64,000 nt of DNA from an uncultured Thermoplasmata archaeon (GTDB lineage Archaea > Thermoplasmatota > Thermoplasmata > UBA10834): positions 256,001 through 320,000 of the forward strand of contig CAVRDX010000003.1 of the NCBI GenBank assembly GCA_963719945.1. The letters are read 5' to 3'. Of the stretch, positions 25,194 through 48,845 are shown piece by piece; the stretch's first letter is position 1, and every line of letters begins with the position of its first letter. The notes under the pieces are model-generated. The model had not been told where the DNA came from and searched no databases. It saw only the letters and a program-made list of their open reading frames with translations. Made by a program: the position numbers and the translations under genes.

Positions 25194-28100
25194 ATGAGCA
25201 CAGGCACTGGACCGAATTTCGAGGAACCAATCGTTCTGTACCCGACCCCTGGAGTATCCATTGCATCGGTTGTAGTTGGGGACTTTGACTCTGATGGCCT
25301 CGATGACATCGCATATCCTCGCGCCGACCGGGCAATTGATATTCTGCTTCAACCCGAATCTGATTCGGAGTTCAGCCTTCCTGCGGATAGAACATTGACT
25401 GCGAGCACAGATCCTGATTTCACTTTCTTGTGGTCTGGGGATATCACTGGGGATGGACGTGACGACATCGTCGCGATGCGCCCATCAGACCCGAAAATGT
25501 ATCTGTTCGACCAAGATGATTTCATCACAGCACCTCATCCATACGCAACTCTGGATCTGCCAGAGGTTCCATCTTTCGTGACTGTGACGGATGTCACTGA
25601 TGATGGACATGCGGATGTCCTGGCGATATTCGATTCTGCTGATCTGGTATTCCTATACAGGCAGAGTGGAAGTTCCTTGCCATCATCGCCTTCAATGGTC
25701 TTCGTGACCGGTGCATATCCTGTCTGGGCTGGGCTCGGGGACGGTAATGATGATCATAGGGGCGATCTCCTGGTGGTCGATTCAGGTTCTCATAGTATCT
25801 CTGTCTGGATGCAGAACAACTTCGCTCCGACTGTCTACACCGGAGGTCCGTACACCACGGAACAGGGTGATTGGCATCAATTCAATGGCTCATGTATTAC
25901 TGGCGCCTCTGAACTTCCCTATATGGAATATAGATGGGAGTTCGGGGACGGTAGCGAATCGGATTGGTCGAGAGATTCTGCACCGCTCCATCGATACATG
26001 TCCCTCGGCAACTTCACCGTGAATGTGAGCGTCAGGGACCCTTGGGGGCTGACCGATTCGGACAGTACTTACATAGTCGTAATCGACAGTGTGCCGGATG
26101 TCGAATTCACCTGGTCTCCCTTGAATCCGATAGAAGGCCAAACGGTCGTGTTCGAGGATGCGACAGAGTCCTACGATGAATTGGTCCTGCTCAATTGGTC
26201 GGTGGACGGAGCGTTGTTCTCGACAGGCTTGGAGCACACATTATTGACATCGTTCGACGATGGCATTCACACGGTCCAGCTGACCGCCTTGGATTCCGAT
26301 GGCTCGATCGCATCGATATCACATACATTTGCGGTACAGGCGGCAGATCCCGAGATGCAGATCATCGCCCCGGGAACTGCAGATGAAGGAGACGCGGTCT
26401 CATTCTTGGTCATCATAGATTCATGGCATGGCGGGCCCATCGATCCAATATCCAGTTACGAATGGAATTTCTCATACACTGGTGAACCATTCGTGGCATC
26501 AGAGACGACAGGGACTTCGAACACCACTGACCATGTGTTCGGAGCTTCTGGGATATCTCAGATATATGTGGTCGCAGTGAAGGTCACGGATATCGATGGA
26601 GATCACAACATCTCCTACATCAATATCGAGATATTCGACATCGGTCCGACTGCCTTGTTCGAACTCTCGAATGCCGATCCCGAGGAAGGTATACCATTCG
26701 CGATAGTGGATGAGACTTACACCTACGACGGAATAACAACCTGGAGCTGGATGCTCACATATCCAGACAGCTCCACTGAGACATGGAATCTGGATCCGAG
26801 CGGCATGGAATCTCTGGAGTTCGTGCTCGGCAATGGTTCCTATTCAATGCGGTTGCAGGTCGCAGAGGCAGACGGAGATTCAAACGCGTTCATTCTAGAT
26901 TTCGAAGTGGCCGAGATACCGCCACTCATAACTCTGATCGCCAGACCCTTATCGTCTTCATATCTTGAATTCCAGACCATGACTCTGTCTGCCCAAGTGC
27001 AGAGCCACGATGAAATCACCGGGTATCAATGGGATTTCGTATCACTAGGTGCTCAATTCATCATGGATGTCTCGACCGATTCGAACGAGACGACTCATAG
27101 TTACAGCTGGGTAGGGAACTACACTGCCAAGGTGAATGTGACAGACGAAGATGGATCATATGCTGTTGCAGAGCTAGATATTGAGGTCGTCGATGCAGGA
27201 TTGTCTGCGACGTTCGAATCCGATGTGGATATCTTGCGGGAAGACATGAACCGGACCTACGAGCTCACTTTTGACGCATCATCTATCGCCACAAGATTCC
27301 CTGACATATCTCTGACGACATGGGAGTTCGGGGATGGCTCGAAGGAGATACTTCCAGGTCCACCATCTGAAACGATAACTCACGAATACGATCCTATCCA
27401 CGACTATGTCGTGAACCTCACGATATCCGATGACGATGGGAACACGCTCATCATCTCAAAAACGCTCCTACTCATCCAACCTTCCATCGAGCTGATCAAT
27501 CCCATCGACGACAATGTGATCCGCTCAGGATCACCGATACGGTTCATCATTGGTGATGACTCGCCACCATTGGTATCTGTTCAATATTCTGTCGATTCAC
27601 AGTCGTACATGGATTTCGAGACCATGTACTCCATAGACACTGCTGGTTGGACGGACGGCACATATTCGATCTGTGTGCGCGCAGAGGACAAGGATGGCAA
27701 CATCGCAGTGAAGGACGATGTCGAAATCAGAATCGATGACACATCCCCCTCGGTAGAGGTCCTATGGTCCGAGATATCTGCATACGGTGGCGACAAGGTC
27801 AACATATCCATACAGATCACCGACGAGAACATCGATCCTGATTCAGTCGTGTTGCTCATAAAGTATCCAGGTGACGATTCCACATCATCGTTATTGATGC
27901 GGCCAGGGCTAGATGGCAAATTTTATGTCCTTGTGGAGATGCCAAAGAGATCCGGGACTGTCGAGTTCTATGTCCATGTGGCTGATCTAGCAGGCAACGA
28001 GATGACGACCGAACCGGACTACTTCGAAGTGAAACTGCATTTCATCGATGCCGCATGGCCATATCTGCTGGTTGCCGCGATGATCGCAATGGTTGGAACG

Positions 28101-28556
28101 GGGTTCTATTTCCTTCGTGAATCCAAGATCGCGGTGGACGAGACATTCGTGATATACAATGACGGCAGGATGCTTGCTCACAGCACTCGTCGTCTCAAGC
28201 CTGGAATGGACGATCAGGTGCTGAGCAGCATGTTCGTTGCGATCCAGGACTTCATAAAGGATTCCTTCAAGGACGAGACATCATTCACACTCCGCAAACT
28301 CGATTTCGGAGACAAGTCCGTTCTCATCGAGAAAGGGGATCATCTGTTCCTCGCAGTAGTTCTCCACGGCAAGGCCTCGAAGAAGGTGGCCAGGAAGATG
28401 AAGGATGTCCTCGACGACATCGAGGATGAGTTCTCAACGGTGCTCATGAACTGGGATGGTGACTTGGACCAGGTACGGGGAGTCACGGACATGGTCAGTC
28501 GACTGTATTCGAAAGCCCCGACCATGCCATCGGGACTGAATAGAAAGGAGACATAG
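25194..28556 (+). CDS. Intact 3' part: FG-GAP repeats, multiple PKD/Ig-like domains, TM helix, cytoplasmic longin-like domain
   Basis: GDFDSDGLDD repeats, WEFGDGS PKD motifs, TM AAWPYLLVAAMIAMVGTGFYFL, tail ETFVIYNDGRMLAH...SMFVAIQDFIKDSF...WDGD. Confidence 0.8.
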   Translation: MSTGTGPNFEEPIVLYPTPGVSIASVVVGDFDSDGLDDIAYPRADRAIDILLQPESDSEFSLPADRTLTASTDPDFTFLWSGDITGDGRDDIVAMRPSDPKMYLFDQDDFITAPHPYATLDLPEVPSFVTVTDVTDDGHADVLAIFDSADLVFLYRQSGSSLPSSPSMVFVTGAYPVWAGLGDGNDDHRGDLLVVDSGSHSISVWMQNNFAPTVYTGGPYTTEQGDWHQFNGSCITGASELPYMEYRWEFGDGSESDWSRDSAPLHRYMSLGNFTVNVSVRDPWGLTDSDSTYIVVIDSVPDVEFTWSPLNPIEGQTVVFEDATESYDELVLLNWSVDGALFSTGLEHTLLTSFDDGIHTVQLTALDSDGSIASISHTFAVQAADPEMQIIAPGTADEGDAVSFLVIIDSWHGGPIDPISSYEWNFSYTGEPFVASETTGTSNTTDHVFGASGISQIYVVAVKVTDIDGDHNISYINIEIFDIGPTALFELSNADPEEGIPFAIVDETYTYDGITTWSWMLTYPDSSTETWNLDPSGMESLEFVLGNGSYSMRLQVAEADGDSNAFILDFEVAEIPPLITLIARPLSSSYLEFQTMTLSAQVQSHDEITGYQWDFVSLGAQFIMDVSTDSNETTHSYSWVGNYTAKVNVTDEDGSYAVAELDIEVVDAGLSATFESDVDILREDMNRTYELTFDASSIATRFPDISLTTWEFGDGSKEILPGPPSETITHEYDPIHDYVVNLTISDDDGNTLIISKTLLLIQPSIELINPIDDNVIRSGSPIRFIIGDDSPPLVSVQYSVDSQSYMDFETMYSIDTAGWTDGTYSICVRAEDKDGNIAVKDDVEIRIDDTSPSVEVLWSEISAYGGDKVNISIQITDENIDPDSVVLLIKYPGDDSTSSLLMRPGLDGKFYVLVEMPKRSGTVEFYVHVADLAGNEMTTEPDYFEVKLHFIDAAWPYLLVAAMIAMVGTGFYFLRESKIAVDETFVIYNDGRMLAHSTRRLKPGMDDQVLSSMFVAIQDFIKDSFKDETSFTLRKLDFGDKSVLIEKGDHLFLAVVLHGKASKKVARKMKDVLDDIEDEFSTVLMNWDGDLDQVRGVTDMVSRLYSKAPTMPSGLNRKET

Positions 28557-30843: not shown

Positions 30844-30990
30844 GGTCAGGACCAGGCAATAGCCACAACCATAATGAATACATCTTCTTCTATCTCGGAT
30901 CTGGTATAGTCGGCAACGAACGGTTCTGCCAAATTTCAGACAGCTCAGGCAATGCTTATATATGACATCGTATTTAGACGGCTACAGAGA

Positions 30991-31211
30991 GGTTTGACGG
31001 CCATAGTGGCGGGGTCACACCTGGTCTCATCCCGAACCCAGAAGTTAAGCCCGCCTACGTTCTCTGTGGTACTGAGGTGCGCGAGCCCTCGGGAAGCCTA
31101 AGGTCCTAGCGGCCTCTCATGCATAGCGGCTAGATGCGCTAGCCCTGTACCTTCGGGTACAGGGTGATCCGCATCGTTTGAACCCGTTATGTGTGTGGAA
31201 CGCTGTCAGCC
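30991..31211 (+). rRNA. rrf: 5S rRNA carrying an about 97-nt structured insertion (about 31098-31195)
   Basis: GGCCATAG..GGGGTCACACC..CATCCCGAACCCAGAAGTTAAG..GTACT..GCGAG..GGGAA core; 3' GAACGCTGTCAGCC closes the 3'-domain helix and helix I only after the insert; TATA (TTATATA) upstream, T-run downstream. Confidence 0.93.
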
Positions 31212-31303
31212 ACTCTCTTTTTACATTTTATTATATTTCGTGCCACTTGTGACCAAGCTTTTATAAGAATACATATGACTTGTCTTACCGGAGCCGGGTA
31301 CCA

Positions 31304-48732: not shown

Positions 48733-48845
48733 CCCGACTTAGCTCAGACTGGCTAGAGCGGCTGACTGTAGTAAGGATATCGGTACGACCGATTTCAGTC
48801 GCTGATATCAGCAGGTCCCCGGTTCAAATCCGGGAGTCGGGACCA
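48733..48845 (+). tRNA. tRNA-Tyr (GTA) with 35-nt intron at 37/38 (48772-48806)
   Basis: CCCGACT/AGTCGGG acceptor, GCTGA-CT-GTA-G...A-TCAGC anticodon arm, GGTTCAAATCC, ACCA. Confidence 0.94.

Follow-up and report, generated by a model that had tools for sequence, protein, structure and literature searches.

The locus described here raises the question of whether an archaeal 5S rRNA gene carrying a large additional segment is a genuine gene with a functional product, and from where such a segment might have originated. The gene occupies positions 30991-31211 of the window, by which we mean the whole stretch of DNA analysed (64,000 nt, from an uncultured Thermoplasmata archaeon). An initial annotation had proposed a 5S rRNA of about 221 nt in total with an expansion of about 97 nt; this was confirmed by in-register comparison, and all coordinates given for 30991-31211 were verified against the sequence.

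Organization of the expanded 5S rRNA gene

RF00001 matches the 5S core at 30993-31114 with 76.1 bits, and this match ends in a false 3′ end, where helix I is closed on a part of the insert with several mismatches. The genuine closing strand of helix I is located at 31198-31211, and the 5S unit therefore comprises 221 nt. The features of the gene and its flanks are as follows:

30956..30963, + strand: putative archaeal TATA box of a stand-alone 5S transcription unit (from sequence and from family conservation 27-37 nt upstream of the gene)
30986..30990, + strand: purine-rich 5′ leader, which can lengthen helix I with 31213-31217 (paired in the fold)
30991..31098, + strand: 5′ part of the 5S rRNA core, from the helix I 5′ strand to core position 108 (RF00001, invariant columns)
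31099..31195, + strand: expansion segment of 97 nt, inserted after core position 108 and before 109, which is the 104.1/105 site of Halococcus (placed in register with normal and haloarchaeal 5S; fold; covariation)
31101..31115, + strand: hairpin A, 5 bp, first arm of a predicted four-way junction (covariation)
31118..31195, + strand: long arm, with stem B formed by 31118-31129 and 31184-31195 (double changes in 8 of 12 pairs)
31130..31183, + strand: asymmetric internal loop 1 (31130-31132 opposite 31176-31183) and the 6-bp stem C (conservation)
31139..31169, + strand: internal loop 2 (31139-31141 with 31166-31169) and distal hairpin D (31142-31165, UUCG loop at 31152-31155)
31196..31212, + strand: 3′ part of the 5S core, the strand closing the parent helix and helix I (sequence, fold)
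31213..31230, + strand: 3′ trailer and T-rich tract (sequence; pyrimidine-rich in all relatives)

The core is canonical, with helices I-V and the conserved letters of loop C and loop E placing it in the RF00001 family, and invariant 5S columns are preserved across 40 expanded genes. Freed of the insert, the core folds in a 5S-like manner with helix I closed, and the fold of the whole gene has a z-score of -3.8. The bounds of the insert were set by lining up the gene with the invariant flanks of normal relatives of 122 nt and are ambiguous by one base, 31100-31196 being also possible. Two separate insertions of 13 and 84 nt were considered and rejected, as the register and the covariation of hairpin A favour a single insert of 97 nt.

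The TATA box, flanking stem and T-run noted earlier around the gene are all present and recur in the family, where the GAG/CTC extension of helix I is also found, with a compensated variant in one relative (L052). Pairing of the leader with 31213-31217 likely represents a precursor processing stem, and the T-rich tract at 31213-31230 is likely a terminator; a scan for bacterial-type terminators gave no match at the 5S 3′ end, as expected for archaea. The 5S gene lies alone between a divergent HAD hydrolase gene and a zinc-ribbon protein gene, and is unlinked from the 16S and 23S rRNA genes, which are located on another contig. Annotation based on Rfam trims expanded 5S genes to approximately 122 nt with a false 3′ end, the same misannotation having been described in haloarchaea by Stepanov and Fox (PMC7812874). 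Elsewhere in the window, positions 25194-28556 encode an FG-GAP/PKD/Ig-domain membrane protein with a C-terminal cytoplasmic domain, and positions 48733-48845 hold a tRNA-Tyr(GUA) gene with a 35-nt intron, missed as such by a default ARAGORN run.

Structure of the insert and selection on its folding

The minimum free energy (MFE) fold of the insert has a stability of -47.1 kcal/mol (z = -4.5), which was equalled by none of 200 shuffled sequences, and it returns all four helices that had been drawn by hand. In the family, stems B-D are 88.8% paired with two-sided changes in 13 of 28 pairs (0/500 shuffles), and hairpin A is 100% paired with compensatory changes in 4 of its 5 pairs. This covariation signal exceeds every slid control as well as the 500 shuffles, and upholds the proposal that selection acts on the structure of the RNA. 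The model-fitted alignment of 67 inserts is 93.5% paired, a value to be read with the tendency of the CM alignments used for the inserts to lean toward the model; seven 97-nt metagenome inserts from outside the modelling set are 97% paired on the same structure. The unpaired letters of both internal loops are nearly invariant in the family. Loop 1 and stem C (31133-31138 with 31170-31175), the base pair of which is invariably G-C or G-U, form the most conserved region of the insert and are common to haloarchaeal and Methanonatronarchaeia inserts, while loop 2 and hairpin D constitute the part that varies between lineages.

A K-turn in loop 1 was rejected, as the G of the would-be first sheared pair is a U in several families. 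An Rfam scan of the insert by itself returned chance matches only, and a plasmid search returned none matching across the insert. Positions 31121-31133 of the window, in stem B and loop 1, are identical over 13 nt to the 5′ start of the 23S rRNA gene of the same assembly (L209, G000:C1:130252, minus strand). This identity to the 23S 5′ end amounts to 6-10 nt in most family members, shows no covariation and falls to zero in the sister family; it is probably due to chance.

Authenticity of the gene and retention of the insert

That the locus represents an assembly artefact, a MITE insertion or a pseudogene, with a normal 5S gene located elsewhere, is given some room by a MAG that is just 87% complete. 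The additional 5S copies for which the initial annotation had recommended a search were not encountered in the assembly, which contains one 5S gene and one copy of the insert, and the single-contig relatives G017, G018 (98% complete) and G020 each have one 5S gene, with the insert. Homologous inserts, likewise recommended for a search, were present in 32 of the 32 family relatives having a 5S match, always inside the 5S gene. Moreover, 77 metagenome contigs hold the family flanks together with the insert and none holds the flanks joined; these contigs appear to be DNA assemblies, so the flank counts carry nothing direct on RNA. The spanning contigs speak against the misassembly that had been raised as an objection, and the MITE insertion raised alongside it is contradicted by a single-copy insert, with one model match per genome in 59 genomes and no copies at unrelated loci. 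Taken with the conserved 5S core and promoter, these observations leave the likelihood of an artefact, MITE or pseudogene negligible.

A number of individual 5S loci in other genomes are noted here. In G189 (contig C128; L242 and L435) the 3′ half of the expanded 5S gene, including insert and terminator, recurs 2.5 kb farther downstream as a duplicate that lacks the 5′ core, and G028 (contig C83; L007) has a second, normal-length and bacterial-looking 5S gene on a 557-bp contig, which is likely bin contamination. Family f6 includes a truncated 5S gene (L235, G092), whose 88-nt match stops in loop D, as well as a 5S copy that lacks the normal helix I 5′ strand (L236, G165).

The insert is very probably retained in the mature rRNA, a conclusion drawn from the Halococcus precedent and from the lack of a conserved bulge-helix-bulge (BHB) motif and of an RNase III match. 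In H. morrhuae the insert is kept in ribosomes, where it forms a four-way junction in the 50S subunit and a flexible arm with faint density toward helix 38 (PMC7530397). If the insert were instead cut out of the precursor as an intron or intervening sequence, its exact losses could have arisen via reverse-transcribed spliced RNA, and those losses are indeed exact to the nucleotide, even within genera. Archaeal rRNA and tRNA introns of the BHB type and bacterial intervening sequences excised by RNase III resemble the present insert in being insertions in a stable RNA gene that end in a long stem; unlike them, it has no BHB junction, homing-endonuclease ORF or RNase III match, and its internal loops are under strong selection. 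Some tRNAs of this genome contain introns, which makes the presence of a splicing endonuclease likely, and the survey of Stepanov and Fox, in which both BHB introns and RNase III-excised intervening sequences are discussed, cautions that retention is unproven outside the classic cases (PMC7812874). Against removal, BHB motifs at the exon-intron junctions showed no conserved register, the best one occurring in 5 of 96 sequences, and no PF14622 match indicative of RNase III was found in this 87% complete genome, the control giving matches in 8 bacteria. Excision would furthermore leave two core pairs mismatched, a partial remnant of 26 nt exists in genome G095, and the probable homologue in H. 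morrhuae stays in its ribosomes (PMC7530397). Removal of the insert as an intron or intervening sequence is consequently regarded as very unlikely.

Distribution of the arm

The initial annotation viewed the insert as an independent expansion restricted to its own lineage, which is not supported, as the arm is widespread in Thermoplasmatota, where it was found in approximately 20 families, and is bridged to the haloarchaeal insert. A model built on one family recovers 67 of the 77 Thermoplasmatota inserts. With a broader model a match was obtained in 59 of 151 sampled genomes of the class, one in each and nearly all-or-none by family, and in 14 of 151 genomes of the phylum, and reading of low-scoring 5S genes revealed diverged inserts in the same register in six more families. 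The insert measures 97 nt here and 95-113 nt in most Thermoplasmatota carriers. Carrier counts obtained by contig scan are to be read as "at least".

Among the matches listed, the Thermoplasmatota carriers include Ca. Saliniplasma, Ca. Haladaptatiplasma, Ca. Sysuiplasma and RBG_16_67_27, and those on the Halobacteriota side include Halalkalicoccus, Halomarina, Halodesulfurarchaeum, Salinirubellus, Actinarchaeum, Ods02 and Marine Group IV HikBin1. A previous survey reported archaeal 5S expansions in 15 Halobacteriales strains only, with their spread ascribed to horizontal transfer; the genera it names are four from the Halobacteriales, and Thermoplasma, Methanomassiliicoccales and Methanonatronarchaeia do not appear in it (PMC7812874). 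Salinirubellus, Actinarchaeum, HikBin1 and Ods02 are absent from the list of Stepanov and Fox, and haloarchaeal-type inserts were also found in members of Halobacteriaceae and Haloarculaceae outside it (L124, L125, L160, L090, L086 and L095 for these lineages together). Across the 151 Halobacteriota sampled, an insert turned up nowhere except in three Methanonatronarchaeia and three genomes of the haloarchaeal side. Scanning 401 Halobacteriota genomes with a loose pattern yielded mostly noise and was rejected. Our literature search found no paper on a wider distribution of the 5S arm.

Relationship to the Halococcus-type insert

The Halococcus type, described from Halococcus, Halalkalicoccus, Halomarina and Halodesulfurarchaeum, consists of 108 nt inserted after archaeal core position 104.1 and before 105 (C108/G109 in H. 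marismortui) (PMC7812874), and has been visualized by cryo-EM (PMC7530397). The suggestion that the present insert lies at the same place holds to the nucleotide: the register is identical in 85 Thermoplasmatota and 14 haloarchaeal-side inserts, and by this register the Halalkalicoccus insert is 108 nt, equal to the published length (PMC7812874). The two types share, besides the exact site, a similar size, the status of sole 5S type in the cell, a short 5′ hairpin followed by a long arm at a four-way junction (here predicted from the secondary structure), stem C with the loop-1 signature, and an otherwise canonical core. They differ in that the Thermoplasmatota carriers belong to another phylum and are mostly non-halophilic sediment lineages, the insert is 97 nt here, the 5S gene is unlinked from 16S/23S, the two core pairs at the junction are open here and closed in haloarchaea, and no significant sequence-only similarity is seen; retention in ribosomes has been observed in H. 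morrhuae and is predicted here. The distal arm in the window is a simple UUCG hairpin and not the conserved haloarchaeal distal module with its GGG/CCC hairpin, and both one-sided models skip the distal part in cross-alignments. As the distal module is replaced, the insert is a variant and no plain member of the Halococcus type. The Thermoanaerobacterium (41-46 nt at 52/53), clostridial and Pseudoalteromonas 5S types (PMC7812874) are likewise self-folding helical modules on an intact core, but occur at other sites with other structures, often coexist with normal copies and are confined below family rank, whereas this arm spans approximately 20 families and two phyla.

Sequence-only HMMs gave no match between Thermoplasmatota and haloarchaeal inserts, and the family-only model R1 had no significant match to the latter. 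Independent consensus folds show the same layout in both groups, down to a stem C of 6 bp whose basal pair is always G-C or G-U. When the Thermoplasmatota-only CM was run over 94.5 kb of haloarchaeal loci, the top 8 matches were inserts with ends within 0-2 bases, at only 12-20 bits, and deep Thermoplasmatota inserts score in the same range with this model. Over all direct comparisons between the two groups the CM scores lie at 11-21 bits, a weak similarity. The top 5 matches in the reciprocal haloarchaea-only search were also inserts, the best, in one family, reaching 21.1 bits (E 0.0047, model E-values being rough), and the 16S/23S loci of this genome attained at most 10.5 bits. Fourteen unpaired insert positions agree between the groups (p ~0.003, the positions having been picked after inspection of the alignment), and identity to haloarchaeal inserts is 43-50%. 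The strongest evidence for homology is the bridge formed by Methanonatronarchaeia, in which 3 of the 4 genomes with a 5S match have a 106-110-nt insert in the same register, one of the carriers being Ca. Methanohalarchaeum thermophilum by McrA. With the Thermoplasmatota model, two of these three inserts reached 29.1 bits (E 1e-4) and 22.3 bits, and the haloarchaeal model gave the same two 20.4 bits and 21.0 bits (E 0.003 for the latter score). These E-values span 1e-4 to 5e-3, neither model having been trained on the inserts, and the third insert scored 15-16 bits. These inserts combine a Thermoplasmatota-like proximal loop with the haloarchaeal distal GGG/CCC hairpin.

Convergence, whereby independent expansion occurred at a tolerant site and the likeness stems from a favoured junction and common RNA motifs, would account for the lack of a sequence-level match, the modest identity and the dissimilar distal arms, and the insertion site is known to be sterically free (PMC7812874). 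It does not sit well with an identical register and helix order, the shared design of stem C and the shared unpaired letters, and it is largely refuted already by a bridging class that both one-sided models recognise, so that we hold it to be very improbable. On this comparative evidence the Thermoplasmata arm and the Halococcus-type insert are probably homologous.

Probable loss and possible transfer of the arm

The history of the arm was read on a tree of 14 ribosomal proteins from 80 genomes (2400 columns), rooted on five Halobacteriota and obtained by a quick search with no mixture model; its deep forks are left open. Carriers occupy 13-14 separate places on this tree, including the deepest Thermoplasmatota branches, and in the sampled tree a single gain requires approximately 19 losses, gains alone requiring 13. 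With one genome per family (19 families), insert distance correlates with ribosomal-protein distance (rho 0.40, p 0.002), and 5S core distance does so with a rho of 0.46. The insert subtypes map to species-tree clades. The correlation with protein distance, together with the insert-less genes described next, favours ancient inheritance with repeated precise loss.

Traces of such loss are visible in the genes themselves. Next to the insertion point, core pair 74 is open in 99% of expanded Thermoplasmatota genes and core pair 75 in 92%, whereas 82% of normal genes have these positions paired, and the open all-pyrimidine junction persists in 6 of 51 insert-less genes, including those of G110 and G121, whose congeners carry the insert. 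In G095 (L228) a stub of approximately 26 nt after core position 108 consists of hairpin A and a short tetraloop hairpin, the stub of stem B, and its family relative G143 has the full 96-nt arm. These open-junction and stub observations favour loss over repeated gain. Within a genus or family the insert is exactly present or absent between similar flanks and cores in the pairs L216/L434, L214/L433, L243/L241 and L218/L429, and genera and the families f31, f36 and f54 are of mixed state. The 5S gene of G169 (L241) has an odd 3′ end. Family f21 contains a normal-length 5S gene (L245, G175) with a junction equal to that of the window gene minus the insert; f21 is sister to a family which, judged by 5S and by the tree, resembles Methanomassiliicoccales.

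The patchy distribution, with its 13-14 state changes and the mixed states of f31, f36 and f54, together with the rarity of the arm in sampled Halobacteriota, could also be explained if the homologous arm had spread across phyla, and perhaps families, through horizontal transfer limited to the segment itself, followed by recombination into the resident 5S gene. Ca. Saliniplasma, Methanonatronarchaeia and haloarchaea share hypersaline habitats, in line with this explanation. Within haloarchaea, transfer of the segment has been proposed by Stepanov and Fox (PMC7812874). Subtypes that follow species-tree clades, distances that track the protein tree and open-junction scars that point to loss are at odds with this explanation, and the 5S cores divide by phylum (SH-aLRT 98), so that transfer of the whole gene is not indicated. 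We therefore consider movement of the segment an unlikely explanation. As the arm is rarely found in sampled Halobacteriota, the two phyla may share it through one ancient transfer instead of by descent. Overall, it is probable that the arm is homologous to the Halococcus type, dates back to the root of Thermoplasmatota or close to it, has been inherited vertically and lost many times by precise or partial deletion, and forms part of a functional and sole 5S rRNA.

Proposed role and significance of the arm

The secondary structure of the arm, the selection on it, its site and its distribution are established. In the mechanism we propose, the 5S gene would be transcribed alone from its own TATA promoter and trimmed at its ends with the insert kept, and the resulting 5S rRNA of approximately 220 nt would be incorporated into the 50S subunit. 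The insert would open the parent helix adjoining loop E and so create a four-way junction, in which hairpin A and a long arm, itself a stack of three helices, would meet two helices of the core. The arm itself would be accessory, without an essential role; its repeated loss implies that it is dispensable. Its most likely accessory function is to stabilise the central protuberance or to recruit a factor. Tentatively, and at somewhat less than an even chance, loop 1 may be a module that docks or bends the arm through contact with a further RNA element or with a factor, 23S helix 38 being a candidate partner. The 8-nt strand of loop 1 fits U-U-N-R-A in the family and resembles a T-loop, a five-nucleotide loop with a non-canonical Y-A closing pair and a base intercalated between positions 4 and 5 (10.1101/2022.12.26.521914); 6-nt variants of the strand do not fit. 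No extension or residue of uL5, uL18, uL30, eL19, uL15, eL32 or uL6 was found to track the insert.

The arm is fixed in whole Thermoplasmatota families and is found too in Methanonatronarchaeia, Hikarchaeia and other deep halophile lineages. On the reading preferred here, its history changes from that of a recent curiosity to that of an old and repeatedly deleted domain, with a bearing on models of rRNA growth mainly by accretion. The present analysis supplies what the cryo-EM study of Halococcus lacked, i.e. a secondary structure backed by covariation, a conserved loop to mutate, non-halophilic carriers, the ribosomes of which may image better, and congeneric pairs with and without the arm. 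A bolder and more doubtful proposal is that a structured 5S domain of approximately 100 nt, docking via a conserved internal loop on the ribosome or on a factor, was already present in the common ancestor of Thermoplasmatota and Halobacteriota and has been cleanly shed dozens of times. If this is true, secondary reduction would account for the normal 5S rRNA seen in Thermoplasma, Methanomassiliicoccales, marine Poseidoniia, methanogens and most haloarchaea, and Halococcus would be a relict rather than a recent acquirer.
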